Both the position numbers and the translations under genes were made by a program. Of a stretch of DNA of 64,000 nucleotides, positions 3,784 to 41,134 are shown piece after piece. Under the pieces are notes generated by a model. That model worked only from the letters and a program-made list of their open reading frames with translations. It did no database searches and was not told the DNA's origin. The stretch is taken from contig JAJYPL010000004.1 of assembly GCA_021795355.1 (NCBI GenBank), positions 1,467 through 65,466 on the forward strand. The letters run 5' to 3'. The stretch comes from a bacterium (GTDB taxonomy: Bacteria > SZUA-79 > Acidulodesulfobacterales > Acidulodesulfobacteraceae). How positions within the stretch are numbered: the first letter of the stretch is position 1; each line of letters starts with the position of its first letter.

Positions 3784-3853
3784 TCCGAAGATAATGTTAT
3801 AATATAATTGTAACAATAAATTTAATGCAAGAATAAAAAAAGGAGTTAAGATT

Positions 3854-20599: not shown

Positions 20600-21184
20600 A
20601 TGACGAAAAAAAATCTGCAGATAATTAAGCTTTCGGTTTTTGTATTAGCTATCGTATTTTTGTCGATAATCATAGTAAAGATGCCGGAAATAGTAGCATC
20701 GATAAAGAATTCTTCTTCGCCGAAAGGAAAACCTGCTTTAAAAAAATCGGGAAATAAATTCAAGGCGCCGTATTTTTCAGTTTCCGCTATTAACTATAAA
20801 GGAAAAGTCTTATCGTTAAAACGCTATAAAGGAAAAATAATTTTAGTAAATTTTTGGGCTACGTGGTGTCCCCCCTGCAGAGCCGAAATCCCTCGATTGG
20901 AAAAATTTTACAAATCGCATAAAAAAGACGGCTTTACCGTAATCGGTCTTTCGGTTAACAATCAGGGAAAAAACTACGTCCTGCATTTTATAAAGACCTT
21001 TAAGGGCGGCATTATAACTTATCCCGTAGGCATGGCTACATATTCGATAGAAAAAGCATACGGAAACATATATGAAATTCCGCAGTCTTTTCTTATAAAC
21101 AGAAAAGGCTATATAGTAGCGCATATTACCGGCGAATTGCCGAGGGGATATTTGCCGTACGAATTTAATAAATTAAATAAATAA
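20600..21184 (+). CDS. membrane-anchored TlpA/ResA-like thiol:disulfide oxidoreductase
   Basis: N-terminal TM anchor. The thioredoxin fold has WATWCPPCRAE. Confidence 0.75.
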   Translation: MTKKNLQIIKLSVFVLAIVFLSIIIVKMPEIVASIKNSSSPKGKPALKKSGNKFKAPYFSVSAINYKGKVLSLKRYKGKIILVNFWATWCPPCRAEIPRLEKFYKSHKKDGFTVIGLSVNNQGKNYVLHFIKTFKGGIITYPVGMATYSIEKAYGNIYEIPQSFLINRKGYIVAHITGELPRGYLPYEFNKLNK

Positions 21185-21592: not shown

Positions 21593-21940
21593 ATGAAATT
21601 TAAATACGACGTAGAATATATTACGAAAATCACCAAGTTGAGCAAAGAGTTCATACTCGGACTCCTTAAATATTTTGACGGGCTTCCTTTGCAGGCTAAA
21701 CTTGAAGCGTTTTATATAAGCAAAATAATAGAAGAGGACGATGAATTTGCTTTTCATCAGCACTATTTCGATAAAGACAGATCCGCCGAATATGAATTCG
21801 CGCTGTTCATCCTGGGCGTTGAAAGGATATATTCCGTAGAACATAGAAAAGAAGAAGCGGAAGCTCAAGGAAAAAAACTTTCCGCATATAAGATAAATTT
21901 GATTTCAAAAATTACGGAACTCAGGAAGCAGGATGATTAA
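21593..21940 (+). CDS. hypothetical protein
   Basis: 115-aa ORF whose stop overlaps the dsrN start (ATGATTAA). No clear RBS. Overlaps an antisense ORF. Confidence 0.35.
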   Translation: MKFKYDVEYITKITKLSKEFILGLLKYFDGLPLQAKLEAFYISKIIEEDDEFAFHQHYFDKDRSAEYEFALFILGVERIYSVEHRKEEAEAQGKKLSAYKINLISKITELRKQDD

Positions 21941-23411
21941 CGTTGAAAATACCCAAAAATATAAAAAGAATAATAGAAATATTATTAAAGGAATTTACAT
22001 TTCAGCCGCTAAAAGAAATTCAGGGAAAACTACTATTTCTATAGCTCTGTCGCGTTTGCTGAGCAACAGGGGTTTATCCGTCCAGCCTTTCAAAAAAGGC
22101 CCTGATTTTATCGATCCCATGTGGCTGAATATCGCCTCAAGAAACAGGGCTTATAATCTGGATTTCTATTTTATGCCTAAAGATAAAATCAGAAATCATT
22201 TCTTAAAATATTCTTTAAATTCGGACATCAGCATAGTAGAGGGAAATCACGGTCTGCACGATTCTATAGATATTTACGGAAAATCGTCCAACGCCGAAAT
22301 GGCTAAACTGCTGGGACTTCCGGTGATACTTATTATAGACGTCGGAGAATTGAACAGAGGAGTTGTCCCTTTAATATTGGGGTATAAAGAATTCGATAAA
22401 AACGTAGATATAAAAGGCGTTATTCTGAATAAAGTCCACAGCAAAAGACACGAAAAAAATCTGCTTAGAGCGATTAAATATTATACCGATTTAAAGGTCG
22501 TAGGCAATATACCCAATAATCCGGAATTTTCTATAAAACAGAGGCATCTGGGGCTTTTATCGACGATGTCCGGCAGTGAAATAGAAGCGTTGGTAGATAA
22601 GACTTCAACCGAAATCGCGGACTATATAGATTTGGAAGGCATAATAAAAATGTCGAAATTTGCCGACAAACATTATACCGATGCCCAAAAAAAACATATA
22701 TTAAAATTAAACGCCGATAACGCAAAGCAAAAAAATAAAAGAAGCGGCTCAATCAAAATAGGCGTTGCTTTCGATAACGCTTTTAATTTTTATTATAACG
22801 AAAATTTGGAAGCTCTCGAAAATCTCGGATGCGAATTGATTAAATTTTCTCCGCTCTCCGATAAGCATCTGCCGGATATCGACGCTTTATATATAGGCGG
22901 CGGATTTCCGGAAATATTTGCGCAGGATTTACAGGACAATAACTCGATGCGGAAGGAGATAAGACGGAAAATAGAAGAAGGTCTTCCCGTTTATGCAGAG
23001 TGCGGCGGACTTATGTATCTTTGCCAAAGCATTTCTTACGAAAACGGTTTTAACGAAATGGTAGGCGCGATAGACGCCGACGTTAAACTTACCAAAAAAC
23101 CGAAGGGACACGGATACACGAAACTGACCCCGTATTCTTATGGGAAAGCGGGCGTAAGCCTGTGGTTCGATAAAATTAAATTAATAAAAGGACACGAATT
23201 TCATCATTCGTATTTAGAAATGTCTCCGGAAAGATATAAATTTGTATTTAAAATGAAAAAAGGCTACGGAGTGGACGGCTTCTCCGACGGCATAACATAT
23301 AAGAATCTTTTGGCAGGATACACGCATATGTATTCTCCGTCGTCGCCAGGGTGGTTTAAAAACTGGGTTGCTTTTATAAAACGGACAAAAAATAAACAAG
23401 AAAATATGTAG
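21933..23411 (+). CDS. dsrN: cobyrinate a,c-diamide synthase homolog; by context DsrN-like siroheme amidase
   Basis: CbiA/CobB N-terminal P-loop (AKRNSGKTT) and a C-terminal glutamine amidotransferase domain (AECGGLMYL). Sits directly upstream of dsrAB. Confidence 0.75.
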   Translation: MINVENTQKYKKNNRNIIKGIYISAAKRNSGKTTISIALSRLLSNRGLSVQPFKKGPDFIDPMWLNIASRNRAYNLDFYFMPKDKIRNHFLKYSLNSDISIVEGNHGLHDSIDIYGKSSNAEMAKLLGLPVILIIDVGELNRGVVPLILGYKEFDKNVDIKGVILNKVHSKRHEKNLLRAIKYYTDLKVVGNIPNNPEFSIKQRHLGLLSTMSGSEIEALVDKTSTEIADYIDLEGIIKMSKFADKHYTDAQKKHILKLNADNAKQKNKRSGSIKIGVAFDNAFNFYYNENLEALENLGCELIKFSPLSDKHLPDIDALYIGGGFPEIFAQDLQDNNSMRKEIRRKIEEGLPVYAECGGLMYLCQSISYENGFNEMVGAIDADVKLTKKPKGHGYTKLTPYSYGKAGVSLWFDKIKLIKGHEFHHSYLEMSPERYKFVFKMKKGYGVDGFSDGITYKNLLAGYTHMYSPSSPGWFKNWVAFIKRTKNKQENM

Positions 23412-23688: not shown

Positions 23689-24876
23689 ATGGGTAAAAAG
23701 CACCAGACTCCGCTTCTTGACGAACTTAAAAAAGGGAAGTGGATAAGTTTTGTCAAGGAAATAGAAAGAGCGGCGGAGAAGAGCGAGAGAACCGAAGACC
23801 TTTTGGGACAGGTTGAAGAATCTTACCGCGATAAAGTAAACCATTGGAAACACGGCGGCATGGCGGGCGTTAAGGGATACGGCGCAGGAATGGTCGGCAG
23901 GTTCAGCGAATACCCCGATAAATATCCGGGAATTAAAGAATGTCATTCTATGAGAATTATACCTTCCGCAGGTTTTTTCTATAACTCCGATTTTCTTAGA
24001 AAATTAGCCGATATTTCCGAAAAACACGCCGGAGGCTTGCTGAACTTTCACGGAGCTACCGGAAATATTCAGATACTCGGAATGTCCCAGGCGGAAGCCG
24101 AAGACGTTTTCCAGGCAGTAGCGGAGCTCGGTTTCGACCTTGGCGGCAGCGGATCCGATTTAAGAACGCCTTCATGCTGTGCCGGACAGGCAAGATGCGA
24201 ATTTGCAAATTACGATACTATGAAAATTTGCCGCCATTTAACCGAAGAATATTTGGACGAGCTTCACAGACCGGCGTTTAATTATAAATTTAAATTTAAA
24301 TTTTCAGGATGCTCTAACGACTGCGTCGCATCAGCCGCAAGATCCGATCTTGCTTTCATAGGAACATGGAAAGACAAAATAAAAATCAATCAGGAAGAAG
24401 TAAAAAATTATAAAAAGAAATTCGACGTTCAAAAATACGTTCTCGATAAATGTCCGACAAAGTGCATGTGGTTTGAAGGTGAAAATCTTGCCATCGACGA
24501 CGAAAACTGCGTGAAATGTATGCACTGTATAAATGAACTGCCTAAAGCTCTTAAAGCCGGCGATGAAAGAGGCTGCTCTATTTTAATAGGAGCAAAAGCG
24601 CCTTTGGTTACCGGTCCTAGAATGGGCATGATGCTCGTTCCTTTTTACGACGTAAACGAAGATGCAAAGAACGACTATGAATGGATAAAATCCTTAATTT
24701 CCAATATGTGGGAATTCTGGGACGAATACGGAGTCAGCAGGGAAAGAATAGGAGAGCTTATAGGAAGGGTAGGATTAAATACCTTCTTGGAAGGCATAGG
24801 ATTAGAGCCTATTCCCGAAATGGTCGAACATCCGAGAAGCAATCCGTTTATTAAATTTACCGAAGACGAAGATTAG
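23689..24876 (+). CDS. dsrA: dissimilatory sulfite reductase alpha subunit
   Basis: Cysteine clusters (PSCCAGQARCE, FSGCSNDCVAS) and ferredoxin-insert cysteines (CPTKC, CVKCMHC). Paired with dsrB. RBS aaaggagg. Confidence 0.9.
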   Translation: MGKKHQTPLLDELKKGKWISFVKEIERAAEKSERTEDLLGQVEESYRDKVNHWKHGGMAGVKGYGAGMVGRFSEYPDKYPGIKECHSMRIIPSAGFFYNSDFLRKLADISEKHAGGLLNFHGATGNIQILGMSQAEAEDVFQAVAELGFDLGGSGSDLRTPSCCAGQARCEFANYDTMKICRHLTEEYLDELHRPAFNYKFKFKFSGCSNDCVASAARSDLAFIGTWKDKIKINQEEVKNYKKKFDVQKYVLDKCPTKCMWFEGENLAIDDENCVKCMHCINELPKALKAGDERGCSILIGAKAPLVTGPRMGMMLVPFYDVNEDAKNDYEWIKSLISNMWEFWDEYGVSRERIGELIGRVGLNTFLEGIGLEPIPEMVEHPRSNPFIKFTEDED

Positions 24877-24949
24877 TAGTCTTAAAATTTAAAAATTAAA
24901 ATAATAATAACAATAATTTTTAGCATTATATATAAATTTGGAGGTTAAT

Positions 24950-26035
24950 ATGGCAGAAGAAGTTAAAAAGAAAAGACTTACCGATATTGGACCCCATGAT
25001 TACAACGAATATTTGTCGCCCGTTATAAAAAAGAATTACGGCAAATGGGCTTATCATGAGATTATCGATCCCGGCACTATGGTGCACGTGGCGGAAAGCG
25101 GCGATAAACTGTATACGGTGAGAATGGGTTCGCCGAGATTAGTCAGCGGCAGTTTCGTGAGGGATATTTGCGATATCGCCGATAAATACTGCGGCGGACA
25201 CTTAAGATTTACTACAAGAAATAACGTTGAATTTTTAATAGAAGACGAAAAAAACGTCGAACCGCTTAAAAAAGACCTTGAAAAAATGGGCTATAACGTA
25301 GGCGGCATAGGCAACATTGTTGCAAATATAGTTCATACTCAGGGATGGGTGCACTGCCATACTTCCGCAAGCGATGCATCAGGCGTCGTAAAATCGGTCA
25401 TGGATGAATTATATGAATATTTTGTTGAAGAAAAGCTTCCGTCAAAAGTCAGAATAGCATTTGCATGCTGTTTAAATATGTGCGGTTCCGTTTCGTCTTC
25501 GGACATAGCTATAGTAGGAACTCACAGAAAACCGCCGAGAATCGATCTCGAAAGACTTAGAAACCTCTGCGAAATACCGAGTACTATTGCGGCGTGTCCT
25601 ACAAATTCAATCAGGCCGGATACCGTGGACGGTAAACCGGCAGTAAAAGTAAACGAAGAAACTTGCGTTTTTTGCGGAAGCTGCTATACGGTTTGTCCCG
25701 CTATGCCTATTGCTAATGCCGAAAACGACGGTTTATCGATTTGGGTCGGAGGAAAAGTATCCAATGCCAGAACGAAACCGACTTTCTCTAAATTGGCGAT
25801 ACCGTTTATTCCTAATGATCCTCCGAGATGGCCGGGAGTAGTAAACGCCGTTAAAACTATTCTTAACGAATATAAAAAAGGCGCAGAACCGGGCGAAAGA
25901 GTCGGCGAATGGATAGACAGGATAGGCTGGCCGAGATTCTTTAAGATTACGGGATTCCCGTTCACGAAATACCATATCGACGATTTCAGGCTCGGCGAAA
26001 CTACTATGAACTATTCTTCGCACGCCAGGTTGTAG
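24950..26035 (+). CDS. dsrB: dissimilatory sulfite reductase beta subunit
   Basis: [10 protein letters not shown] siroheme/[4Fe-4S] region, CCLNMCG, and a ferredoxin insert ([12 protein letters not shown]). Start set at the ATG 5 nt after GGAGG; the track ORF begins at 24938. Confidence 0.9.
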
Positions 26036-26455: not shown

Positions 26456-28168
26456 ATGCTTGAATTAAAAAAACCAAAAAAACCGGCAAAAATTGCGGCA
26501 AATACGGGCGGCGGCATGTCTCAGTCGCCGTACAGGCCCAAATACGTCGAAAAAAGACCTCCGTGTATGGATACTTGTCCGAATGGAACCAAGGTTAGGG
26601 ATTATATTCAGCTTATAGCGCAGAGCGAGTCATACGACCGTCCGATAGACGACTCCTTAAAACTCGCTTTTAATATGCTGACGGAGTCGAATCCCCTTCC
26701 TTCGACAACGGGAAGAGTATGTCCCCATCCGTGCGAGGATGCATGCAACAGAAAAGAAAAAGACACGCCGGTAGCCATTAACGCTATAGAAATGTTTGTA
26801 GGAGATTACGGAATAAAAAATAATCTTCAGTATAAAAAATTGACCGAAGTTACAAGAAAAGAAAAGATTGCAATAATAGGAAGCGGCCCTGCGGGATTGT
26901 CGGCAGCTTATCATCTTGCGTTAAGGGGATATAACGTGGTTATTTTCGAAAAATTTCCGGAAACCGGAGGATATTTAAGGTACGGAATACCCCGTTTCAG
27001 GCTGCCGTTAGATATCATAGATGCGGAAGTTCAGCGCATTAAAAATCTCGGAGTAGAGATTAAGACAGGGGTTAACATAGGGACGGACGTAACGTTAGAC
27101 GGCCTTAAGTCAGAATATGACGCAATATTTATAGCTATAGGAACTCACGAACCTATAAAAATGAAGATGAACGGCGCAGATTCCGCTAATGTTTATACCG
27201 GAATAGAATTTCTGCAGAAAGCGGCTTCCGGCGAACTTAAAGATGCGGGAAAAGAAGTTGTAGTTATCGGGAGCGACAGCGCAATGGACGCGGGAATGGT
27301 TGCAAAAAGGCTGGGCGCTAACGTCACGTTTATTTATAATAAAGGCACCGTTAACGATGCATCCGAAATAGAAGAAAAAGGTTCTACGGAAGTAAAAGAG
27401 GGGCACGCCGAAGGAATAAAATTCGAATTTTTATTTGCGCTTGACGAGATAGTTACGGAAAACGGCAAAGCCACAGCCGTAAAACTTAAAAAAATGAAAC
27501 TTTCTGAGAAAGACGCATCCGGCAGGGTTCATCCGATAATCATCGAAGGCGGACAGGAACTTAATTTAAAATTAGACACCCTGATATATTCGTTCGGTCA
27601 AAAACCGGATTATAAAGGTTTAGAAAATCTAACTAAAAATCCGAATAACGAGTTTTTAAAAGTTGACGATAATTATCTTGTAGCAGGAGAAGATAAAGTG
27701 TTTGCCGGCGGCGATATATTAAGGTTCGGTCTCGTTACGGATGCTATCGGAATGGGAAGATATGCCGCATACGCTATACATAAAAAGTTTAGCGGAGAAC
27801 AGGTTATTAACGACGAAAGAAGAGTTATAAAGTACGACGACGCAGTAAACAGAGAAGGGAAAAATATGTATCTTGCATATTTTCAGCCGGCAGAAAGAAA
27901 GAAAAGGACATCTAGAGATCCGAAAGAAAGAGTTAAAGATTTCGAGGGTATTTTAAACGACCTTAATTTCGACGAACTTGTTTCGGAAGTAAAGAGGTGT
28001 ATGAGCTGCGGACTTTGCTTCGACTGCGGCAGCTGTTTCGAATACTGCTCGCAGAGCGCAGTTAAAAAATTGCCCAAAGGACAGCATTTCGAATTTCATC
28101 TCGAAACGTGCAACGGATGTAAAAAATGCGCCGAAAGCTGCCCATGCGGTTATATAGATATGCTGTAA
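26456..28168 (+). CDS. dsrL: DsrL-like NAD(P)H:acceptor oxidoreductase (GltD-like flavoprotein with C-terminal 2x[4Fe-4S] ferredoxin domain)
   Basis: N-terminal Cys cluster (CPHPCEDACNR), FAD/NAD folds (IIGSGPAGLSAA, VIGSDSAMD), and C-terminal CMSCGLCFDCGSC...CNGCKKCAESCPC. Located within the dsr cluster. Confidence 0.75.
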   Translation: MLELKKPKKPAKIAANTGGGMSQSPYRPKYVEKRPPCMDTCPNGTKVRDYIQLIAQSESYDRPIDDSLKLAFNMLTESNPLPSTTGRVCPHPCEDACNRKEKDTPVAINAIEMFVGDYGIKNNLQYKKLTEVTRKEKIAIIGSGPAGLSAAYHLALRGYNVVIFEKFPETGGYLRYGIPRFRLPLDIIDAEVQRIKNLGVEIKTGVNIGTDVTLDGLKSEYDAIFIAIGTHEPIKMKMNGADSANVYTGIEFLQKAASGELKDAGKEVVVIGSDSAMDAGMVAKRLGANVTFIYNKGTVNDASEIEEKGSTEVKEGHAEGIKFEFLFALDEIVTENGKATAVKLKKMKLSEKDASGRVHPIIIEGGQELNLKLDTLIYSFGQKPDYKGLENLTKNPNNEFLKVDDNYLVAGEDKVFAGGDILRFGLVTDAIGMGRYAAYAIHKKFSGEQVINDERRVIKYDDAVNREGKNMYLAYFQPAERKKRTSRDPKERVKDFEGILNDLNFDELVSEVKRCMSCGLCFDCGSCFEYCSQSAVKKLPKGQHFEFHLETCNGCKKCAESCPCGYIDML

Positions 28169-28237: not shown

Positions 28238-28579
28238 ATGGCAAGTTTTGTTTATAACGGAAAAACGATAGAAACGGATGACGAAGGTTACCTTCAGAAT
28301 CTTGGAGACTGGGATAAAGGTCTTGCTGAAGTTCTTGCGAAGCAGGAAAATGTCGAATTAACCGAAAAGCACTGGAAATTAATTGAATGGATCAGGGATT
28401 ATTTCCAGAAATTTCAGGTTGCGCCGGCAATTAAATCGCTGACGAAAGAGGTCATGTCGCTTGAAAATTTACCTGATAAAAAAGAAGCTAATAAATTCAT
28501 TTATGAATTATTTCCGGAAGGTCCCGCAAAACAGCTTGCAAAAATCTCCGGTCTTCCTAAACCGACAGGCTGCGTTTAA
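28238..28579 (+). CDS. dsrC: DsrC/TusE-family protein with a single (penultimate) cysteine
   Basis: The C-terminus KISGLPKPTGCV matches the DsrC swinging arm. The position of the second conserved Cys, 11 residues upstream, is Ala. Confidence 0.85.
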   Translation: MASFVYNGKTIETDDEGYLQNLGDWDKGLAEVLAKQENVELTEKHWKLIEWIRDYFQKFQVAPAIKSLTKEVMSLENLPDKKEANKFIYELFPEGPAKQLAKISGLPKPTGCV

Positions 28580-28600
28580 TATAAAAAAGAACTATGTAAA

Positions 28601-28631
28601 TAATCAAGCGGCTTTTTAAGCCGCTTGATTA
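28601..28631 (+). terminator. strong hairpin after dsrC
   Basis: taatcaagcggctt / aagccgcttgatta 14-bp arms with a 3-nt loop. Weak T-tract. Confidence 0.5.
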
Positions 28632-28688
28632 TTATATGAACATAATGTAAAAACAAAAATAAAATTATTTATTCAGGGGGGAGTAAAT

Positions 28689-29450
28689 ATGGAACCTCTT
28701 ACCGTTACAACTTATATATATTTATTAATTACATATTCAGTCGGATTAGTTTTTGCCATAGGCGTTATTTTGAGAATATATCAATATGCAACTACGCCGC
28801 AGCCTATTAAAATAATGCTGACTCCGGCGCCTCTTACGAAAAGCGGCGCATTCGCGAGAGTTCTCGGAGAGGTATTTTTCTTTAAAAGCCTCTTTAAATC
28901 CAATAAGCCTACATGGGTATTCGGATACCTGTTTCATATTTCGTTTTTTCTTTTAATAGCCATGCATTTTGCGCGCCATTTTGTTTACACTAATCCTTTG
29001 CCTTCCTGGTACAACTATTTCGTATTGGCGGGGATAGTATGCGGAATAATTATGGTTTTATCTCTTTTTTTACTTCTCATGAGAAGGGTGGTCGTTGAAA
29101 GAGTCAAATTTATATCTCTGTTTCAAGACTATTTGATATTAATTTTATTGATGCTTATAGGCATAGCCGGTCTGTCTTTGAATTTTGTATTAACGCCAAG
29201 CGCATTGACCGTAGTAGATAAACAGCTGGATCCGTATATAAACGGTCTTTTGACGTTTCAATTCACTAATATACCGTCAAATCCGTTATTTTTGATGCAC
29301 TATACTCTGGTAATGCTTCTTATTCTATATATACCGTTCAGCAAAGTAATGCATTTCGTAGGAATATTCTTTTCTCCGACAAGAAATATGGCGGATAATC
29401 CTATAGAAGAAAGGTATTATCGTCCTAATGCAAAGGATCTTTCAATATAG
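28689..29450 (+). CDS. dsrM: DsrM, NarI-like membrane di-heme cytochrome b
   Basis: Five or six TM helices with conserved His residues (FHISFF, MHFARH, MHY, MHFVG). Immediately upstream of dsrK. Confidence 0.8.
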   Translation: MEPLTVTTYIYLLITYSVGLVFAIGVILRIYQYATTPQPIKIMLTPAPLTKSGAFARVLGEVFFFKSLFKSNKPTWVFGYLFHISFFLLIAMHFARHFVYTNPLPSWYNYFVLAGIVCGIIMVLSLFLLLMRRVVVERVKFISLFQDYLILILLMLIGIAGLSLNFVLTPSALTVVDKQLDPYINGLLTFQFTNIPSNPLFLMHYTLVMLLILYIPFSKVMHFVGIFFSPTRNMADNPIEERYYRPNAKDLSI

Positions 29451-29573
29451 AGGTGTGCGATATAAGCATGCAAAACCGATTTAAATTTATAGTCTAACTA
29501 CTATATAAAATATAAATAATAAATAACCTGCAATTTTGATTCTTCATAAGGATTAATCGGAGGTATGTACAGT

Positions 29574-31061
29574 ATGGCTAAGCCGAAAAGTAAATATAAA
29601 GTACCGGTATTGGACGGAAAGATTTCAATACCGAAAATAGTTCCCGGAGCATCGTCGTATGAACATATGATAGAAGCTCAAAAAGAAGATATGGAAGCGC
29701 TTGGTTTTCCGGCTAAATTGCAAGACGGATGGAAGGATAAAGCGCTTGGAGTATTTAAGCAGATTTTAGACCATAATAAAGCAGTAAGGGATTATATGGA
29801 TATATGCGTCAGGTGCGGCGCATGTACCGATAAATGCCAGTTTTTCCTCGGTACGTCCGACCCGAATAATATGCCCGTACAAAGGCAGGAATTGATGAGG
29901 AAGGTTTACAGATATTATTTTACTCCGTCGGGATTTTTTAAAAGCCTTTCTAACTCGCAGGAACTGACGGAAGAAGTATTAAAAGAATGGTACACTTATT
30001 TCTGGCAGTGTTCGGAGTGCAGAAGATGTTCTCTGTACTGTCCTTACGGCATAGATACCGCAGAAATAACTATGGCGGCAAGACAGATTATGGATTCAAT
30101 AGGTCTCGGCCAAAAATACACGACAGAAGTTATTCACAAGGTTTTCGTGACCGGAAATAATATAGGAATCCCTCCTGCAGCTCTAAGAAATACGCTTGAC
30201 GACTTAGAAGAAGAAATAGAAGAAGAAGGCGGAAAGGGCGTAAAAATTCCAATGGACGTAGAGGGAGCGGAAGTCTTGCTTGTCCCTCCGTCGGCCGATT
30301 TTTTTGCTATGCCCCATATGGAATCCCTGAAAGGATACGCAAAAGTGTTTCATAAAGCCGGTATAAGCTATACGGTTTCATCATATGCGTCCGAAGCCGG
30401 TAATTTCGGTAAGTTTATAGGAAGCTATCAAAACACAAAAGAAATAAATAAAAGGATATGGGATGAAGCAAGAAGGCTTAAAGTAAAGAGAGTTATTATA
30501 GGAGAGTGCGGACATGCATGGAGAGCGGCCTATATGTACTCGAATACCATGAATGGACCTTTCGATTTTCTCGATTCGAAATATAAACAGCCTACCCATA
30601 TATGCGAATTCACCTTAGGTCTTGTAAAAGACGGAGTTATCAAGCTCGATCCAACGGCAAACGACGATAAAATCGTTACGTTCCACGATTCCTGCAACGT
30701 AGCGAGAGGTTCCAGAATAGGCGACGTTGTAGGCGGCCAATTTACGATACCGAGAGAATTGATAAAAGCCGCCGCAAATAAATTTGTAGAATTAAGGGAA
30801 GGAACTACGAAAGAAAGCACTTTTTGCTGCGGCGCAGGCGGCGGACTGCTGACCGAAGAAGTCATGAACGTGAGGCTTGCAGGTTCAATGCCGAGAATGC
30901 AGACGGTTAAAGAAGCCGTAGATAATCACGGTGTAAATTTTTATGCCTTGATTTGCGCAATATGCAAGACCCAGTTTTCTAAGGTATTCCCGTTGTACGG
31001 CTTAGATGCCGAAATGGTGGGCGGTATTCATCAGTTAGTCAGCAATGCTATAATAATGTAA
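29574..31061 (+). CDS. dsrK: DsrK, HdrD-like iron-sulfur protein with CCG domains
   Basis: CVRCGACTDKC and CSECRRCSLYCP ferredoxin motifs. CCG-type motifs (FHDSCN, TFCCGAGGG). Start taken at the second ATG, 10 nt from GGAGG; the track start is 29565. Confidence 0.85.
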   Translation: MAKPKSKYKVPVLDGKISIPKIVPGASSYEHMIEAQKEDMEALGFPAKLQDGWKDKALGVFKQILDHNKAVRDYMDICVRCGACTDKCQFFLGTSDPNNMPVQRQELMRKVYRYYFTPSGFFKSLSNSQELTEEVLKEWYTYFWQCSECRRCSLYCPYGIDTAEITMAARQIMDSIGLGQKYTTEVIHKVFVTGNNIGIPPAALRNTLDDLEEEIEEEGGKGVKIPMDVEGAEVLLVPPSADFFAMPHMESLKGYAKVFHKAGISYTVSSYASEAGNFGKFIGSYQNTKEINKRIWDEARRLKVKRVIIGECGHAWRAAYMYSNTMNGPFDFLDSKYKQPTHICEFTLGLVKDGVIKLDPTANDDKIVTFHDSCNVARGSRIGDVVGGQFTIPRELIKAAANKFVELREGTTKESTFCCGAGGGLLTEEVMNVRLAGSMPRMQTVKEAVDNHGVNFYALICAICKTQFSKVFPLYGLDAEMVGGIHQLVSNAIIM

Positions 31062-31193: not shown

Positions 31194-31227
31194 TAAATAA
31201 TAAATTAAATTATTAATGGAGGAACTA

Positions 31228-31578
31228 ATGAAATTAGGCATTCTTATTAAAGAAGGCCCTTATATGCATCAGGCTATGGACACGGCCTATAATTTTATAT
31301 TAGCGGCTATGGAAAGCGGACATGAAATAACGGGCATATTTTTTTATAACGACGGAGTTTATAACAGATGTGCAACGCTTGAACCTCCAAGAGACGAAAG
31401 GAATATCATGAAACTCCTTACGGAATTAGAATTGAAAGGAGTCAGATTAATAGTCTGCGTTGCGGCTGGGAAAAGAAGAGGCATAGTAAATCAGACGGTA
31501 TGCAAAGTGGAAGAAATATCGGGACTTGGACAACTGCTCGAACTCTGCATAACATCCGACAGAACTATAACTTTTTAA
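31228..31578 (+). CDS. dsrE: DsrE sulfurtransferase subunit
   Basis: EGPYMHQAMDTAYNF, FFYNDGV, VCVAAGKRRGI and ISGLGQL align closely with Allochromatium DsrE. Start at the ATG 5 nt after GGAGG. Confidence 0.9.
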   Translation: MKLGILIKEGPYMHQAMDTAYNFILAAMESGHEITGIFFYNDGVYNRCATLEPPRDERNIMKLLTELELKGVRLIVCVAAGKRRGIVNQTVCKVEEISGLGQLLELCITSDRTITF

Positions 31579-31616: not shown

Positions 31617-31991
31617 ATGTCTGAACAAGAAAAAACTAAAGTTATGTTTGTATGCAGAACCGCTCCGTACGGAACCATATACGAACAGGAAGCTATAGAA
31701 GCTATGGTTATGTTCGGCGCATACGAACAGGATATCAGCGTAACATTTACGGGAGACGGAGTATTTTCGCTGAAAAAAGGACAGGATACTTCATTGCTGG
31801 GAAAGAAAAATTTTTCCATGACCTATCCTATATTAATAGACGACTTTGAAATTTCGCATATATACGTCGAAAAAGAGTCTCTCGAAGAAAGAGGTTTGAC
31901 GGAAGACGATTTAGCGACGGAAGTAGAAATAATAGATAGAAATTCTTTAAAACAAAAGATGGGAGAAATGAAAGCTTTACTTCCGTTTTAA
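31617..31991 (+). CDS. dsrF: DsrF
   Basis: APYGTIYEQEAIE, GDGVFSL.KGQDT, KNFS.TY and LEERGLTEDDL match DsrF/TusC. Confidence 0.9.
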   Translation: MSEQEKTKVMFVCRTAPYGTIYEQEAIEAMVMFGAYEQDISVTFTGDGVFSLKKGQDTSLLGKKNFSMTYPILIDDFEISHIYVEKESLEERGLTEDDLATEVEIIDRNSLKQKMGEMKALLPF

Positions 31992-32043: not shown

Positions 32044-32343
32044 GTGCTGCACATAGTAAAAAAATCTCCATATGAATCTTCCGCATTCAGCGACGCAATA
32101 AACTATATGGAACAAAACGATATAATGCTTTTAACCGAAGACGGCATATATGCCGCAAAAAAGGGCGGAAAATTTGAAGGAGCGTTAAAAAGCCTTATGC
32201 AAAAAAATGCCGTTTTCTGTCTTATAGCCGACGTAAAAGCAAGAGGCATTCAGGAAAGCGAAATAATAGAAAACGTAAAAGTAATAGACTATAAAGGCTT
32301 TGTAGAAAAAGTAGTTGAACATAATCCTATGACGTGGTCGTAA
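32044..32343 (+). CDS. dsrH: DsrH
   Basis: GTG start. LHIVKKSPYES, EDGIYAA, DVKARGI and IDYKGFV match DsrH/TusB. Confidence 0.85.
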   Translation: MLHIVKKSPYESSAFSDAINYMEQNDIMLLTEDGIYAAKKGGKFEGALKSLMQKNAVFCLIADVKARGIQESEIIENVKVIDYKGFVEKVVEHNPMTWS

Positions 32344-32432: not shown

Positions 32433-33656
32433 ATGGCCTTAGTAAATCCGCACGGTAAAGAGAAAAAGTTAAAACCTCTGCTTTTGTCGGGAAGCGAACT
32501 TAGCTCCGCAAAAGAAAAAGCGAAAAACCTTAAGAAATTGCCTATGACCTCAAGAGAAACATCCGACCTTATAATGATGGGCATAGGAGCATTTACGCCT
32601 CTTGAAGGCTTTATGGGAAAGAAAGACTGGCAGGGCGTAGTGGACAACTATACTATGGAAGACGGAACATTCTGGCCTATACCGATTACCCTTTCCGCCG
32701 CAAAAGAATTATCCGACGAAATTAAAATCGGAGAGGAAGTTGCGCTTGTCGATTTTGAGACCTCTGAAATTATAGGAATAATTACCGTATCCGAAAAATA
32801 TTCTATAGACAAGGCATATGAGTGCCAAAAAATATTTAAAACGACCGATATGGAACATCCCGGAGTTCAAAAAGTTATGGCACAGGGAGACATAAATATT
32901 GCCGGAAAAGTAAAAGTATTAAGCGAAAGCTATTATCCGGCAGAATTTAAAGATATATATATGCGTCCTGCAGAAGTCAGGAAATTGTTTGAGGAAAAAG
33001 GATGGAATACCGTAGCGGCATTTCAGACGAGAAACCCTATGCACCGCTCGCACGAATATCTTGCAAAAGTTGCGGTTGAAACCACGGACGGAGTGCTTAT
33101 ACACCAGTTAGTCGGAAAGTTAAAACCCGGAGATATTCCTGCGAACGTTCGAGCGGTAGCAATCAATACATTAATAGATAAATATTTCGTTAAAAACACC
33201 GTAGTTCAAGCAGGTTATCCTATGGAAATGAGATATGCCGGACCAAGGGAAGCCCTGCTTCATGCAGTGTTCAGGCAGAATTACGGATGCTCCCATCTTA
33301 TCGTCGGAAGAGATCACGCCGGAGTCGGCGACTATTACGGTCCGTTCGATGCGCACAAGATATTCGACGAAATTCCCAAAAATGCGCTTGAGTTAAAACC
33401 GTTAAAAATGGACCTTACGTTTTACTGCCATAAATGCGACGGCATGGCTTCGACGAGAACATGTCCCCACCCGAAGGAAGACAGGCTTACGCTTAGCGGA
33501 ACTATGCTAAGAAAATTATTATCCGAAGGACAGGAAGTTCCGGACCATTTTTCCAGACCGGAAGTTTTATCTATACTGAAAGATTACTATGCATCTCTTG
33601 CAAAAGAAGATAAGGTAGAAATTAAGCTTCATAAAGCGGCAAAAGGAGAAATTTAA
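32433..33656 (+). CDS. sat: sulfate adenylyltransferase (ATP sulfurylase)
   Basis: [13 protein letters not shown] and GRDHAGVG signatures. C-terminal zinc-ribbon-like CHKCDG...CPH. Confidence 0.95.
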
Positions 33657-33747
33657 TTCAGTTATAATTTTATATTGCCGGCTTGATATAAAGCGGCAGT
33701 ATATATTCTTATAAAAAAACAAAATATAAAATTAAGGAGGTATGGAA

Positions 33748-34182
33748 ATGCCAAGTTTTGTAATTACGGAAAAGTGCGACGGATGTAAAGGCAGAGATAA
33801 GACGGCCTGCCAGTATATTTGTCCGAACGACCTTATGGTATTAAATAAGGACATTATGAAGGCTTATAATCAGGAGCCCGACCAGTGCTGGGAGTGCTAC
33901 AGCTGCGTTAAAATTTGTCCTCAGTCTGCAATCGAAGTGAGAGCTTATCAGGATTTTGCCCCGCTGGGCGCATCGGTTATTCCTATGAGAGGTTCCGATT
34001 CAATTATGTGGACGGTAAAATTCAGAAACGGAAAAATTAAAAGGTTTAAATTCCCGATAAGAACTACTCCGGAAGGCGGTATCGATCCGTATCAGGGAAT
34101 AGCCGAGGTAAACCAGGGCAGCCTGAAAGACGAGCGTCTGTGCGACGAACTCGGAGTTGAACTTACGGCTCCTAAGAAATAA
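33748..34182 (+). CDS. aprB: adenylylsulfate (APS) reductase beta subunit
   Basis: MPSFVITEKCDGCKG...CQYICP and CWECYSCVKICP ferredoxin clusters. Precedes aprA. Start at the ATG 7 nt after GGAGG. Confidence 0.9.
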   Translation: MPSFVITEKCDGCKGRDKTACQYICPNDLMVLNKDIMKAYNQEPDQCWECYSCVKICPQSAIEVRAYQDFAPLGASVIPMRGSDSIMWTVKFRNGKIKRFKFPIRTTPEGGIDPYQGIAEVNQGSLKDERLCDELGVELTAPKK

Positions 34183-34246
34183 AGAATTAAAAGACTTTTA
34201 TTTATTTATAATTAAAATAATTTATAATTTGCGAGGATAAATTGAT

Positions 34247-36172
34247 ATGGCTGAAATGAAAGGTTCAATGACTAGCACCGAAGTTTTGAACAATTATACC
34301 ATAGAAGAAATCAGCACCGACGTCTTAATCGTCGGCGGCGGTATGGTTGGTTGCGGAGCCGCATTCGAAATCAAAAAATGGGCGCCGAAAGATATGAAAA
34401 TAACTTTGATAGAAAAAGCTTCCATAGAAAGAAGCGGCGCCGTTGCAATGGGATTATCCGCTATTAATACGTATCTTGGAGACAATACTCCGGAAGATTA
34501 CGTTAAACACGTTGCTAACGACCTTATGGGTATAGTTAGGGAAGACCTTATATACGATACCGGAAGGCACGTCGATTCTACCGTAAGGCTTTTTGAAAAA
34601 TTCGGACTTCCTATATTTAAAGAAGACGAAGACGATTCAAGAACGATTGCCGAGGGAGCAAAACCGTTAAGAGCAGGAAGATGGCAGATAATGATTCACG
34701 GCGAGTCTTATAAAGTACTTGTTGCCGAAGCGGCAAGAAAAGCTTTAGGCGAAGAAAACATCAAGGAAAGAGTCTTTATTACCGAACTTCTTATGGACGA
34801 AAAGCACGAAAACAGGGTTGCCGGAGCAATCGGTTTCAGCTTAAGAGAAGCAAAAATATATATCATTAAAGCAAAAGCGGTAATCATGGCTTGCGGCGGA
34901 ACGGTTAACGTTTTCAGGCCGAGATCCCAGGCTGAAGGTATGGGAAGAACATGGTATGCAATATGGAATGCCGGTTCTACCTATGCTATGGGTTATCAGG
35001 CCGGCGCAGAAATGACCACTATGGAAAACAGATTCGTTCCGAACAGATTTAAAGACGGATACGGACCCGTAGGCGCATGGTTTACTCTCTTCAAATCCAG
35101 AGTTTTAAATGCTCACGGTGAAGATTATATGCAGAAATGGGGACACATGCTTCAGGATTATGCTCCTTACGGACTTGCGAAAGTTCCCGCCACTTGCTTA
35201 TGGAACCACGTTATGCTTAAAGACTGGATGGAAGGAAACGGTCCTTTCTATATGAATACGTCCGGCGCTATGAAAACGCTTTTTGAAACTCTTCCCGAAA
35301 AGAGAAAAAAATCGCTTGAAGCCGATGCTTGGGAAGATTTCCTTGATATGACGGTTGCGCAGGCGGGATTATGGGCGTCGATGGATATAGATCCTGGTGA
35401 AACAAACTCCGAAGTTATGCCGACCGAACCTTATTTCTTAGGTTCGCATTCGGGCGCTTGCGGAATGTGGGTTTCGGGACCGGAAGATTTAGCTCCGAAG
35501 GAATATCAGTGGGGCTATAACCGTATGACGACAGTTAACGGACTATTCACAGGCGGCGACGGCGTAGGAGCATCCGGACACAAATTCTCTTCCGGCTCAT
35601 ACGTAGAAGGAAGAATTGCGGCAAAATCCGCAGTCAGGTTTATACTTGACGATCCGGGATTTACGCCTACGGTTCATACCGACAACAAAGTCCTTGCGGA
35701 AAAAGTGTACGGACCTATGATAACCTTTGAAAAATTCAAAGACTATTCCACAGAGTCAAACGTAAATCCTAACTATATAAAACCGAGGCTCTATCTGTTC
35801 AGGTTGAATAAACTTATGGACGAATACGTCGCCGGAACTTCGACTTTCTACAGGACAAGCGAAGCCAGCCTTTTAAGAGGATTGGATCTTTTAAACAGAT
35901 TGAAAGAGGATGCGCCTAAACTTGCGGCCGCCAATCTCCATGAACTTATGAGAGCATGGGAAAATTACCACAGGTCTATAGTCGGCGAACTTCACTTAAG
36001 GCATGTACTGTTCAGAGAAGAAACAAGATATCCGGGCTTCTATTACAGAACCGACCATCCCAAACTCGACGAGCAGAACTGGAAGGTTTTTGTGAATTCT
36101 AAATTAAATAAAACAACGGGACAGCCGGAATTGTTTAAAAAGCCTTATATTGAAATCGTTCCGAAAAATTAG
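34247..36172 (+). CDS. aprA: adenylylsulfate (APS) reductase alpha subunit
   Basis: FAD fold VGGGMVGCGAA. Length of 641 aa and motifs typical of AprA (fumarate-reductase-like flavoprotein). Confidence 0.95.
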   Translation: MAEMKGSMTSTEVLNNYTIEEISTDVLIVGGGMVGCGAAFEIKKWAPKDMKITLIEKASIERSGAVAMGLSAINTYLGDNTPEDYVKHVANDLMGIVREDLIYDTGRHVDSTVRLFEKFGLPIFKEDEDDSRTIAEGAKPLRAGRWQIMIHGESYKVLVAEAARKALGEENIKERVFITELLMDEKHENRVAGAIGFSLREAKIYIIKAKAVIMACGGTVNVFRPRSQAEGMGRTWYAIWNAGSTYAMGYQAGAEMTTMENRFVPNRFKDGYGPVGAWFTLFKSRVLNAHGEDYMQKWGHMLQDYAPYGLAKVPATCLWNHVMLKDWMEGNGPFYMNTSGAMKTLFETLPEKRKKSLEADAWEDFLDMTVAQAGLWASMDIDPGETNSEVMPTEPYFLGSHSGACGMWVSGPEDLAPKEYQWGYNRMTTVNGLFTGGDGVGASGHKFSSGSYVEGRIAAKSAVRFILDDPGFTPTVHTDNKVLAEKVYGPMITFEKFKDYSTESNVNPNYIKPRLYLFRLNKLMDEYVAGTSTFYRTSEASLLRGLDLLNRLKEDAPKLAAANLHELMRAWENYHRSIVGELHLRHVLFREETRYPGFYYRTDHPKLDEQNWKVFVNSKLNKTTGQPELFKKPYIEIVPKN

Positions 36173-36219
36173 TAAATAAACTTAATATATTGTAAAAATA
36201 ATTTATAAAATTAAGTCTA

Positions 36220-36250
36220 TCCCCTTCTCTAGATAGAGAAGGGGATTTTA
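36220..36250 (+). terminator. rho-independent terminator after aprA
   Basis: tccccttctct / agagaagggga 11-bp stem with a 4-nt loop, followed by tttta. Confidence 0.6.
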
Positions 36251-36323
36251 ATATGTATAAAGTCTTTATATATTTTTTATATTATATTTAAATAAATAAA
36301 AACTTAGCAATGGAGATTTAAAG

Positions 36324-37622
36324 TTGAGCGAGCTAAATAATGAAAATGCCGTGCTAATAATCGGCGGCGGGCACAGCGGGGTATCTGCCGCATTAGAAAT
36401 CACCGAGGCGGTCGATAAAAAAGTATATATAGTAGAAAAAAAATCGTATATCGGCGGCAGGGTTCTCCAGATGTATAAGTATTTTCCAAAATTATGCCCC
36501 CCATTCTGCGGCTTTGAAATCAATACGAAAAGAATAAAGTCGTCCGCCGAAGGAAATATAAATTTTTTAGTTTCTTCAAGCGTCGAAGAAATCACGAAAG
36601 CAAAAGAAGGATCAGGATATAAAGTAAAAATTAAACAAAAACCGCAATATATCAACGATAACTGTACCGTATGCGGAGAATGCGCTAAGGTTTGCCCCGA
36701 AGAAAGACCTAACGATTTCAATTACGGCATGGATAATACTAAAGCTATATTTATGCCTGCAATATCTTCGTTTCCCCTTAAATACAGCGTAGATGATAAA
36801 TACTGCAAGTTTTCTGCATGTAAAAAATGCGAAGAAGCGTGCAGATACAGTGCAATTAACTTGGATGCAAAAGAGAATATTATAGAATTAACGGTATCAG
36901 ATATCATATTTGCTACGGGCTGGAAGCCCTATGAAGTAGAAAAATTAGAAAACCTGGGATACGGCAAATATAAAAACGTTATTACCAACGTAAAAATGGA
37001 GAGGCTTGCCGCAGAAAACGGTCCTACAGGCGGAAAAATTTTAAGGCCGTCCGACGGAAAAGAAGTTAAAAACGTAGCATTTATTCAGTGCGCCGGCTCC
37101 AGAAACGAAAACCATCTGCCATACTGTTCCGCGATTTGCTGTATGGCATCCTTGAAGCAGGCGATGTATTTGAGGGAAAAAAATCCCGAATCCTCGCCGG
37201 TCATATTTTATATAGATTTAAGAACGCCGGGCAGATATGAAAATTTTTTAAATAAAGCTCAAAGCGACGAAAAAATAAAATTCAATAAAGGAATAGTCGG
37301 CAAAATATCCGAAGACCGTGAAACGGGAGATCTGCTTTTAGACGTCGAAGATATGCTTTCCGGCAAAAAAAATAAGGTCAGGGCGGAAATGGTGGTTCTT
37401 GCCGCAGGAATGGCGTCAAACATTAAAGACGACCTTAAAGAAATTAAAATAGACGAAGAAATTAAAATAGATATCGACGAAAACGGATTTATATTTAACG
37501 ATAATTTTAAAGAAGGAATATTTTCGGCAGGCGTTGCAAGGTTTCCTTTGGACGTTTATATGTCCGGACAATCTGCGACTTCAGCAGCATTATCGGTAAT
37601 TCAGCATAACGCGAAACTATAA
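36324..37622 (+). CDS. qmoA: QmoA (HdrA-like flavoprotein)
   Basis: IIGGGHSGVSAA FAD fold, CTVCGECAKVCP, and CSAICC typical of the HdrA/Qmo family. TTG start. Follows aprBA. Confidence 0.85.
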   Translation: MSELNNENAVLIIGGGHSGVSAALEITEAVDKKVYIVEKKSYIGGRVLQMYKYFPKLCPPFCGFEINTKRIKSSAEGNINFLVSSSVEEITKAKEGSGYKVKIKQKPQYINDNCTVCGECAKVCPEERPNDFNYGMDNTKAIFMPAISSFPLKYSVDDKYCKFSACKKCEEACRYSAINLDAKENIIELTVSDIIFATGWKPYEVEKLENLGYGKYKNVITNVKMERLAAENGPTGGKILRPSDGKEVKNVAFIQCAGSRNENHLPYCSAICCMASLKQAMYLREKNPESSPVIFYIDLRTPGRYENFLNKAQSDEKIKFNKGIVGKISEDRETGDLLLDVEDMLSGKKNKVRAEMVVLAAGMASNIKDDLKEIKIDEEIKIDIDENGFIFNDNFKEGIFSAGVARFPLDVYMSGQSATSAALSVIQHNAKL

Positions 37623-37648
37623 AAGATATTATTTAGGAAGGAGTTAAA

Positions 37649-39955: not shown

Positions 39956-39970
39956 GAAAGGGGGGATATT

Positions 39971-41134
39971 TTGAATAATACCGTTATTAAGACCGACAAC
40001 GAGTTGATTAAATATATAAAAGAAGTAGGCGAAAGCAATTTTAAAAAATGTTTTCAGTGCGGCACGTGTTCCGCAGTATGTCCTCTGTCAACCGAAGACA
40101 GGCCGTTTCCGAGAAAAGAAATGATAATGGCGGGATGGGGAATGAAAGAACAGCTGACCGCCGATTTAGACCCATGGTTATGCTATTACTGCGGCGAATG
40201 CTCCAAGAACTGCCCAAGGAAAGCCGAACCGGGCGAACTGATGATGTCGCTGCGCCGTTTTTTAATAAGCGCGTATGACTGGACCGGGATTTCAAAGCTT
40301 TTATATGTATCGAAGTACGCCGAATATATCGCAATATTAATAGTAGCGCTCGGAGTTTTGCTTGAGTGGGCGGTTATATTCGGACTTCATCCGGCCGCAG
40401 GAGCGACGCTGTCCCAAGCGGTATCTCCGGATAAAGTGGACTATTTCTTCGACTGGCCGATATCGGCTTTTCTTGCAATTATGCTGACGTCTTTCATATA
40501 CAATATGTACCGGAAGACGGTATTAAGCGACAAAAGCGTGAAAATTCCGCTAAGCCTTTACGTTACGGAAGCATGGTCGCTGATATTTAACTTTTTTACG
40601 CAGTATAGATATGCAAAATGCGACGATTCTGAAGAGTCGGCGACTAAAAAACTTGCCTCCGGCAAATATAATTTCTGGCTTGCCCATCTTTTCTTAATGA
40701 TAAGCTATGTATCCCTGTTTGTAGCCATCGTATTTTTCTTGGACTGGTTTCAAAGCGAAAACAGCATGCCGATTCTTCATATAGTTCTATTCGATTATTT
40801 TGCCAGCATAGGATTAATTTTCGGAACTATTTATTTTATAATTAAAAGATTTTCTAAAAAAATAGAAAGAAGCAAGTTTTCCCATCATACCGACTGGATG
40901 TTCGTCACACTGCTCTTTTTAACGGCGGTTAGCGGAGTTTTACTAAGGGCGGCTATAGTTTACAACTATTCGGTTTCCGCTATTTTTTATATATATCTGA
41001 TTCATTTAATGATATTATTTCCGATGCTTGTGATAGAAGTTCCTTTTTCTAAATGGTCACATCTTGCTTACAGACCGGTTGCAGTATATTTTGCAAACTT
41101 AAAAGAAAAAGCTAAAAACCTAAGTAATAATTAA
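39971..41134 (+). CDS. qmoC: QmoC (HdrC-like Fe-S domain fused to HdrE-like membrane cytochrome b)
   Basis: CFQCGTCSAVCP and CYYCGECSKNCP, followed by about six TM helices. TTG start after the aaagggggg RBS. Confidence 0.8.
   Translation: MNNTVIKTDNELIKYIKEVGESNFKKCFQCGTCSAVCPLSTEDRPFPRKEMIMAGWGMKEQLTADLDPWLCYYCGECSKNCPRKAEPGELMMSLRRFLISAYDWTGISKLLYVSKYAEYIAILIVALGVLLEWAVIFGLHPAAGATLSQAVSPDKVDYFFDWPISAFLAIMLTSFIYNMYRKTVLSDKSVKIPLSLYVTEAWSLIFNFFTQYRYAKCDDSEESATKKLASGKYNFWLAHLFLMISYVSLFVAIVFFLDWFQSENSMPILHIVLFDYFASIGLIFGTIYFIIKRFSKKIERSKFSHHTDWMFVTLLFLTAVSGVLLRAAIVYNYSVSAIFYIYLIHLMILFPMLVIEVPFSKWSHLAYRPVAVYFANLKEKAKNLSNN

Follow-up and report, generated by a model that had tools for sequence, protein, structure and literature searches.

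The dsr operon and its dsrC gene

The sequence considered here is a stretch of 64,000 nucleotides (the window) from contig JAJYPL010000004.1, which comes from a bacterium of the order Acidulodesulfobacterales. Its lineage is the acid mine drainage (AMD) group of Tan et al. 2019 (PMC6776010), which GTDB assigns to the phylum SZUA-79. The window carries an operon in the order dsrN-dsrA-dsrB-(78-residue DsrD-like protein)-dsrL-dsrC-dsrM-dsrK-dsrE-dsrF-dsrH, which continues into sat-aprBA-qmoABC and a gene for an H+-pyrophosphatase; no dsrJOP genes are found in it. The dsr part has the identical order in five other independent contigs (DsrA 66-93% identical), and the sat-apr-qmo order recurs in three contigs (L001, L084 and L087). 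The subject of this report is the dsrC gene, whose product is a 113-residue DsrC with a single cysteine.

DsrC in the strict sense is defined by two cysteines (Venceslau 2014, Stockdreher 2012): CysA, the penultimate residue on the C-terminal arm, and CysB, 11 residues before it, in a protein from an organism with DsrAB and with a gene that typically is linked to dsrAB or dsrMK. In the window, CysA is in place (Cys112 of 113), dsrAB lies 2.2 kb upstream and dsrMK directly downstream, but the position 11 residues upstream of Cys112 is occupied by Ala101, and the protein contains no other cysteine. The initial annotation of the window had reported that the sole cysteine is the penultimate residue and that alanine stands at the CysB position, and both observations are borne out by the translation and by alignment to solved structures. 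In HMMER alignments, Ala101 falls opposite CysB of the DsrC proteins of Allochromatium vinosum (1YX3), Archaeoglobus fulgidus (1SAU) and Desulfovibrio vulgaris (2V4J, ...GACKMAGLPKPTGCV), and likewise opposite CysB of the solved Pyrobaculum aerophilum DsrC. Because there is no second cysteine anywhere in the protein, an intramolecular CysA-S-CysB trisulfide is chemically impossible, as the same annotation had argued.

The PF04358 profile matches residues 6-113 with an E value of 4.5e-39 (133.6 bits, cutoff 24.9), and the full-length match to TIGR03342 (135.1 bits, cutoff 53.5) places the protein in the DsrC/TusE/RspA superfamily. The best match among solved structures is A. vinosum DsrC 1YX3 (E 3.9e-36), with D. 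vulgaris 2V4J chain C reaching only E 6e-20. The annotation tool DiSCo (Neukirchen & Sousa 2021) was built to accept one-cysteine DsrCs, and asks for either two C-terminal cysteines or no more than one mismatch to AGLPKPTG(not N)C. By motif comparison (as distinct from a score against the profile), the SGLPKPTGC of the window protein has one mismatch to this motif, and most of its orthologs carry AGLPKPTGC exactly. A ribosome-binding site (GGAGG) is found 6 nucleotides ahead of the ATG. The DsrC of the operon does lack CysB, and the lack is a conserved and biologically meaningful trait.

Conservation of the single-cysteine state

A search of 5.8 billion proteins with the window DsrC returned 82 relatives. 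All 18 ortholog clusters (75-97% identity) are 113 residues long, with one cysteine, alanine at the CysB position and the C-terminus ...PAK[QD]LA[KM][IV][AS]GLPKPTGCV. Among more distant full-length matches, 62 of 63 have CysB in the canonical context QAC[KR]. The lone one-cysteine exception, P0074, is a stand-alone TusE-like gene beside an enoyl-CoA hydratase gene, with no dsr context, and its product ends in PKPPGCS. The same pattern emerges from DsrCs that are encoded in dsr loci. When these are aligned, the column of CysB holds cysteine in 0 of 7 members of the window clade versus 78 of 78 others. When 185,579 species genomes were scanned, the matches listed (at least 600) comprised, among 80 loci, one Acidulodesulfobacterales-like metagenome-assembled genome (MAG) and one Desulfurella MAG.

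Could the alanine simply be an error, or the gene a decaying pseudogene? The chance of either is negligible. The exact protein is found on 51 contigs from several repositories, and identical and near-identical proteins come, by their source names, from Candidatus Acidulodesulfobacterium in acid mine drainage. The gene has an uninterrupted reading frame, an invariant arm and a strong ribosome-binding site. Moreover, a sequencing error is excluded because the orthologs encode the same alanine by GCA, GCT or GCC, while a change from the GCA of the window to TGY requires two base changes; the Desulfurella gene has GTA (valine) at this codon. The initial annotation had itself pointed to a sequencing error at the Ala codon, and to cysteine in close relatives, as findings that would undo its claim. 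The synonymous codons dispose of the former, and the ortholog alignment, with alanine in all 18 clusters, of the latter.

Two observations on the wider family came from the same protein library. P0119, which lies outside the window, is a protein of 541 residues with five tandem DsrC-like domains; with E 5e-79 it scores highest among the representatives of the library clustered at 50% identity. The library matches also included several DsrC proteins with two domains, 220-350 residues in length.

Partner proteins and candidate substitute thiols

The DsrAB-docking arm GLPKPTGCV and CysA are preserved, as is the active-site cysteine of DsrE (LIVCVAAG, equivalent to A. vinosum Cys78 in the alignment to 2HY5_A), which is kept in 6 of 6 clade operons. 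DsrK retains the CCG motif (residue 421) together with both ferredoxin motifs of the form CxxCxxCxxxC. DsrH is more variable: in the alignment to 2HY5_C, A. vinosum Cys20 is replaced by Ala18 in the window and in L001, and position 18 is cysteine in L004, L084, L085 and L087. DsrH Cys20 is essential in vivo in A. vinosum (Stockdreher 2012). The transfer of sulfur from DsrE-Cys78 to DsrC-CysA in vitro requires neither CysB nor DsrH-Cys20 (Stockdreher 2012), so the sulfur relay into the window DsrC should work.

If CysB has been lost, a compensating cysteine might have been gained in one of the partner proteins. Across the Dsr partners, only one position stood out in a search for such a residue, namely Cys13 of DsrF, which is the only cysteine of that protein and lies in FVCRTAPYG in place of the canonical FVNRKAPYG. 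The position is cysteine in 6 of 6 Acidulodesulfobacterales operons and in 0 of 50 others, 48 of which have asparagine. Cys13 is a candidate for a thiol that acts in trans. The alignments from dsr loci revealed no clade-specific compensatory cysteine in DsrK or DsrE. Cys118 of DsrM was considered for this role and set aside, since no more than 5 of 7 clade members have it. The cysteine differences in DsrA, DsrB and DsrL were rejected as well, for they track the reductive/oxidative division or the DsrL-2 type rather than the cysteine count of DsrC.

Expression of dsrC and the stem-loop behind it

Transcript data from the AMD group bear on whether the one-cysteine protein is in use. In MAG AP4, dsrC reached 155, 1523, 1014, 1480 and 102 reads per kilobase per million (RPKM) in five samples, the highest of any dsr gene, as compared to 4-85 for dsrK and 2-38 for dsrE (Tan 2019 Table S5, PMC6776010). 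Such a transcript level is what would be expected of a working DsrC. A metaproteomic Dsr signal has also been published for SZUA-79 MAGs, and together with the in situ transcript level it bears, indirectly, on a putative role of the window DsrC in dissimilatory sulfite reduction.

Between dsrC and dsrM, RPKM falls about 100-fold (Tan 2019 Table S5, PMC6776010). Directly after the dsrC stop codon, the window contains a stem-loop with a predicted minimum free energy of -31.2 kcal/mol (z -5.3); none of 200 shuffled sequences was as stable, and no clear U-tract follows. The stem-loop is consistent with the fall in RPKM, and may act as a terminator, as an attenuator or to stabilize the mRNA.

Other genes of the operon and the window

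The coordinates of the operon and of the other features are collected in Table 1. Judged by sequence identity, the operon is chimeric, as has already been published. DsrA and DsrB are nearer to the Nitrospirota type (median identity 50% and 58% to Nitrospirota loci versus 41% and 48% to sulfur-oxidizer loci), while DsrM and DsrK are nearer to the sulfur-oxidizer type (40% and 56% versus 29% and 42% to Nitrospirota loci). The Nitrospirota dsr loci are of the reductive type in published trees. DsrL has YNK at residues 294-296 in place of YRR, and Arg27 in place of a cluster cysteine. Both features were described for the genus Acidulodesulfobacterium by Loffler 2020, YNK as an exception to YRR, the motif of NADP preference in other DsrL-2 proteins. 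The YNK motif hints at coupling to NAD(H) rather than NADP(H).

The 78-residue open reading frame (ORF) between dsrB and dsrL, called dsrD by Tan 2019 (PMC6776010), is conserved throughout the clade operons and the dsr loci of Nitrospirota, and homologs also occur in Desulfurella. The ORF itself has no Pfam match and no PDB sequence match above threshold, and the DsrD family PF08679 matches only 2 of 8 relatives (best E 0.0047). Its AlphaFold2 (AF2) model, with a mean predicted local distance difference test score (pLDDT) of 84, is a winged helix, for which DsrD (1WQ2) appears only at Foldseek rank 14 with E 0.07. Perhaps the protein represents a divergent DsrD subfamily.

Several further genes lie upstream. 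An ORF of 115 residues, with no Pfam match and no cysteine, slightly overlaps dsrN from the upstream side and is found also in L001, L085 and L087 (55-80% identity); it may be an undescribed component of the dsr operon. Directly upstream of the operon is a gene for a TlpA/redoxin-like thiol-disulfide oxidoreductase, in the same place in L001 and L087, and another 9 kb upstream is a classical thioredoxin gene. Positions 1108-4378, on the upstream side of the dsr operon at a distance of about 18 kb, hold a cluster for sulfur import and relay. It is similar to the YTD cluster (also named 'DsrEFH type II'; PMC13293266), but has two ORFs of DsrE/F/H size instead of three. Sulfane sulfur could plausibly enter by way of this TusA/YeeE/DsrE-like cluster.

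Table 1. Positions of the dsr operon, its flanking genes and the residues discussed (numbering of the window)
Feature	Position	Strand	Support
TusA-like protein, 86 aa	1108-1368	+	CPIP motif
YeeE/YedE Sulf_transp protein	1427-2605	+	PF04143, E 2.4e-49
Membrane ORF, 98 aa	2650-2946	+	
DsrE-like protein, 101 aa	2993-3298	+	PF02635, E 1.8e-5
ORF, 90 aa	3311-3583	+	no Pfam match
Secreted rhodanese	3854-4378	+	
Thioredoxin	12707-13042	+	
TlpA/redoxin-like oxidoreductase	20600-21184	+	
ORF, 115 aa	21593-21940	+	no Pfam match
dsrN (sirohaem amidase, CobB-like)	21933-23411	+	TIGR00379, 439 bits
dsrA	23689-24876	+	TIGR02064, 489 bits
dsrB	24938-26035	+	TIGR02066, 500 bits
DsrD-like winged-helix protein, 78 aa	26100-26336	+	AF2 fold; conserved position
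dsrL (DsrL-2 type)	26456-28168	+	NF009410, 537 bits
dsrC, 113 aa, single-Cys form	28238-28579	+	PF04358; TIGR03342; one Cys
dsrC codon 101, GCA (Ala at CysB position)	28538-28540	+	alignment to solved DsrCs; ortholog codons
dsrC codon 112, TGC (CysA, penultimate and only Cys)	28571-28573	+	translation
Stem-loop after dsrC stop, 15-bp perfect core	28593-28638	+	folding energy
dsrM (NarI-like membrane cytochrome b)	28689-29450	+	PF02665; DsrM model 99.5 bits, below equivalog cutoff
dsrK	29565-31061	+	NF045796, 528 bits
dsrE	31216-31578	+	TIGR03012, 102 bits
dsrF	31617-31991	+	TIGR03010, 107 bits
dsrF codon 13 (Cys)	31653-31655	+	
dsrH	32044-32343	+	TIGR03011, 87.7 bits
dsrH codon 18 (Ala)	32095-32097	+	alignment to 2HY5_C
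sat-qmoC block	32433-41134	+	Pfam domains
sat	32433-33656	+	Pfam domains
aprB	33742-34182	+	Pfam domains
aprA	34247-36172	+	Pfam domains
qmoA	36324-37622	+	Pfam domains
qmoB	37649-39955	+	Pfam domains
qmoC	39971-41134	+	Pfam domains

Relation to Desulfurella and to other known systems

A one-cysteine DsrC has been known since 2019. Florentino et al. 2019 (PMC6378623) reported that the DsrC of Desulfurella amilsii (DESAMIL20_1431) 'presents only one cysteine residue'. During thiosulfate respiration, which supports efficient growth, DsrAB was abundant, the one-Cys DsrC, DsrK, DsrL and a DsrE-like protein were more abundant, and the authors suggested that cysteines of DsrE might make up for the lost CysB (Florentino 2019, PMC6378623). 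The present results extend the known case to a second lineage, one with true DsrEFH and a full sat-apr-qmo set. The main texts of PMC6776010, PMC12506266, PMC10504309, PMC7596348 and PMC8477390 contain no explicit statement of the one-Cys state of DsrC in Acidulodesulfobacterales.

The two lineages have much in common. A Desulfurella MAG is the second-best match among those listed from the genome scan, and its DsrC, 57% identical to that of the window, is likewise 113 residues long, with CysA only and QL[AV] as the shared pattern at the CysB site. Like the window protein, it carries an insertion of two residues when compared with the closest two-Cys relatives, and it reads ...RQLVRYAGLSKPTGCV, with valine at the CysB position where the window protein has alanine. 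The MAG locus reads dsrAB-(87 residues)-dsrL-dsrC-dsrM-dsrK followed by two DsrE-family genes, so that the window operon shares with it dsrAB, a small DsrD-like ORF, dsrL, dsrC, dsrM, dsrK, DsrE-family genes and the absence of dsrJOP. By cysteine pattern and operon content alike, the window DsrC is of the Desulfurella single-Cys type. The DsrCs of the two groups were joined in a monophyletic group by neighbour-joining (bootstrap 92 of 100), in agreement with Neukirchen et al. 2023, where the two groups form a common branch at the base of the DsrCs of oxidative type. There are differences as well: Desulfurella has two divergent DsrE-like proteins, in contrast to the true DsrEFH set of the window, and D. 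amilsii, a cultured organism of another phylum, lacks the sat-aprBA-qmoABC continuation found in the operon of the uncultured window host.

Comparison with the better-studied systems is also instructive. A. vinosum DsrC, a two-Cys protein of the oxidative type, has an identical arm, GLPKPTGCV, is encoded alongside DsrEFH, DsrL and DsrMK, and uses CysA as the acceptor for sulfur from DsrE-Cys78, but its Cys100 (CysB) corresponds to alanine in the window. The window system further differs in its lack of DsrJOP, in DsrAB that are nearer to the Nitrospirota type than to sulfur-oxidizer DsrAB, and in the change of DsrH Cys20 to alanine. D. vulgaris DsrC shares the fold family and the arm, but belongs to the reductive-type clade of an organism with DsrMKJOP and without DsrL and DsrEFH. 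A D. vulgaris DsrC cysteine mutant can be viewed as the engineered analogue of the natural window protein; the residue changed in it was reportedly CysB (C93A). Finally, TusE of the E. coli type, a relay protein that takes sulfur from TusD and hands it to MnmA for the formation of s2U34 in tRNA, is in the same superfamily (TIGR03342). It resembles the window DsrC in having CysA only and a small residue at the CysB position, and works with TusBCD, the homologs of DsrEFH. The window protein differs in falling below the TusE equivalog cutoff, in its arm motif, and in its dissimilatory context and expression.

A proposed CysA-only cycle

How might a DsrC without CysB serve DsrAB and DsrMK? We favor, with a probability of roughly 0.6, the view that the window protein is a functional DsrC of a single-Cys lineage that includes Desulfurella and acts as a CysA-only persulfide carrier. 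CysB would have disappeared a single time, in the common ancestor of the genes of this lineage, leaving alanine in Acidulodesulfobacterales and valine in Desulfurella. The characteristic operon of the lineage has three parts: DsrAB of the type called reductive in published trees together with a DsrD-like protein; DsrL-2; and DsrC combined with a membrane module of DsrMK only. Behind these there is always a set of DsrE-family sulfurtransferases. On the most economical reading, the working intermediate would be the CysA persulfide instead of an intramolecular trisulfide. The persulfide-only mode put forward in the initial annotation is plausible. In the reductive direction, DsrAB would take sulfite through four electrons to S(0) on CysA, with DsrL-2 and NAD(P)H as the candidate electron donor to DsrAB, and DsrMK would give only the last two electrons, from quinol, with the release of H2S. 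For oxidation, CysA would be loaded by a relay that runs from YeeE/TusA to the DsrE cysteine, and DsrAB with DsrL would oxidize the sulfane sulfur. The DsrE-family partners may place sulfur on CysA or remove it, or may supply a thiol, and in this way take over the role of CysB.

Several points weigh against a CysA-only carrier. Current models for both directions require the DsrC trisulfide as a substrate of DsrAB and DsrMK, and the order has no cultured representative. The D. vulgaris DsrC cysteine mutant still reduced sulfite, though its growth was slower and its yield lower (Santos 2015, as relayed by Florentino 2019, PMC6378623), and for this reason a CysA-only cycle may come at an energetic disadvantage unless something makes up for it. 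In A. vinosum, no sulfur moved from DsrC back to DsrEFH in vitro (Stockdreher 2012). In addition, a further gene of the DsrC family, DESAMIL20_2056, is listed outside the dsr operon in the D. amilsii genome paper. It receives no mention in the main text of the proteomics study (PMC6378623), and its cysteine pattern bears on the possibility of a second DsrC copy.

Alternatives to a CysA-only carrier

The initial annotation offered a choice between another two-Cys dsrC elsewhere and a persulfide-only mode. The logic of that choice is sound, but it missed both the published D. amilsii precedent and the possibility of a trisulfide formed in trans. A second thiol could be contributed by DsrE Cys78, DsrF Cys13 or a second DsrC, giving an intermolecular DsrC-S-X trisulfide that DsrK would reduce or, on the oxidative side, form. 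In that case catalysis in either direction would require proteins of the DsrE family as partners. This explanation is rather unlikely. In both one-Cys lineages, DsrE-family genes directly follow dsrMK (DsrEFH here, two DsrE-like genes in Desulfurella), and in D. amilsii the DsrE-like protein is highly abundant only in thiosulfate reduction, which led the authors to propose that its cysteine compensates (PMC6378623). These two facts favor some involvement of the DsrE family. The gain of the DsrF cysteine throughout the Acidulodesulfobacterales operons points the same way, but DsrF Cys13 is not a general solution because Desulfurella has no DsrF ortholog. Furthermore, dsrEFH transcripts are 10-40 times below those of dsrC in situ (Tan 2019 Table S5), and it is difficult to reconcile such a ratio with a stoichiometric partner. 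More speculative still, and decidedly doubtful, is the notion that the Dsr systems of Acidulodesulfobacterales and Desulfurella run a cycle other than that of Santos 2015, in which CysB has been lost for good, the six electrons are divided in another way between a soluble route of DsrL with NAD(P)H and a quinol route of DsrMK only, and a DsrE-family partner of DsrAB, DsrC and DsrK is obligatory in both directions, perhaps with DsrF Cys13 and an intermolecular DsrC-S-DsrE or DsrC-S-DsrF species.

The carrier of the trisulfide could instead be a DsrC of the canonical two-Cys form whose gene lies in another part of the genome, with the operon copy acting as an auxiliary relay. Many sulfur oxidizers do contain several DsrC-family paralogs. 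The two loci of the D. amilsii genome paper, 1431 and 2056, would fit such a division of labor, and the direct search made here covered the 64-kb window only: tblastn with one-Cys and two-Cys queries detected no second DsrC-family member within it, the next match having an E value of 0.43. However, K11179 (dsrC/tusE) occurs once in each of the MAGs AP1, AP3 and AP4 and is absent from AP2, the MAG without a dsr operon (Tan 2019 Table S4, PMC6776010). A hidden two-Cys copy is unlikely because these published tables give one dsrC/tusE gene, and because that gene is the most transcribed dsr gene, as a working DsrC should be. In D. amilsii, too, it is the operon copy that is more abundant in thiosulfate respiration (PMC6378623). 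The former of the two options in the initial annotation is therefore disfavored. Still less probable, indeed hardly credible, is that the gene is a tusE that lies by chance beside dsr genes and serves, with dsrEFH as tusBCD, in tRNA 2-thiouridine synthesis. CysA without CysB, with alanine at the CysB position, is the TusE signature (Stockdreher 2012), JGI labels cluster members 'tRNA 2-thiouridine synthesizing protein E', and the gene is the sole K11179 gene in the MAGs. But the TusE equivalog model NF008562 gives 107.8 bits against a cutoff of 191, the arm is PKPTGCV and not PKPxKC[IL], and the protein is most closely related to operon-linked DsrCs from sulfur oxidizers and Nitrospirota. The gene sits between dsrL and dsrM in every contig examined, a significant correlation between dsrAB and dsrEFH has been published for their RTA values, and dsrC transcripts are far above a housekeeping need for tRNA modification. 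The stand-alone TusE-like relative P0074 also differs, both in its arm and in its setting. The term 'TusE-like', which the initial annotation applied to the protein, thus fits the cysteine count alone, and is contradicted by the model score, the (A/S)GLPKPTGCV arm, A. vinosum DsrC as the best solved relative and the setting among dsrL and dsrMK. A side role in tRNA thiolation is possible, but the genomic context argues against a TusE role.

Implications

The accepted mechanism of sulfite reduction, and its reversal in sulfur oxidizers, depend on the trisulfide of a two-Cys DsrC to couple DsrAB to the membrane complex. In the AMD lineage of the window, an abundant group with a complete sat-apr-qmo-dsr set, a one-Cys dsrC is transcribed at very high levels, which suggests that the Desulfurella case is not a one-off. 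The finding has a practical side, in that annotation rules based on two cysteines will miscall one-Cys DsrCs as TusE, and the sulfur-cycling potential of AMD communities will be mis-scored as a result; JGI and KEGG-based annotation already label the window DsrC as tusE or 'sulfurtransferase'. If a different catalytic cycle does operate in these organisms, it would explain how one operon can serve both sulfate reduction and sulfur oxidation. The Acidulodesulfobacterales offer a second, independent system, with canonical DsrEFH, for testing sulfite reduction and sulfur oxidation in the absence of CysB and the changed energy coupling that this may entail.

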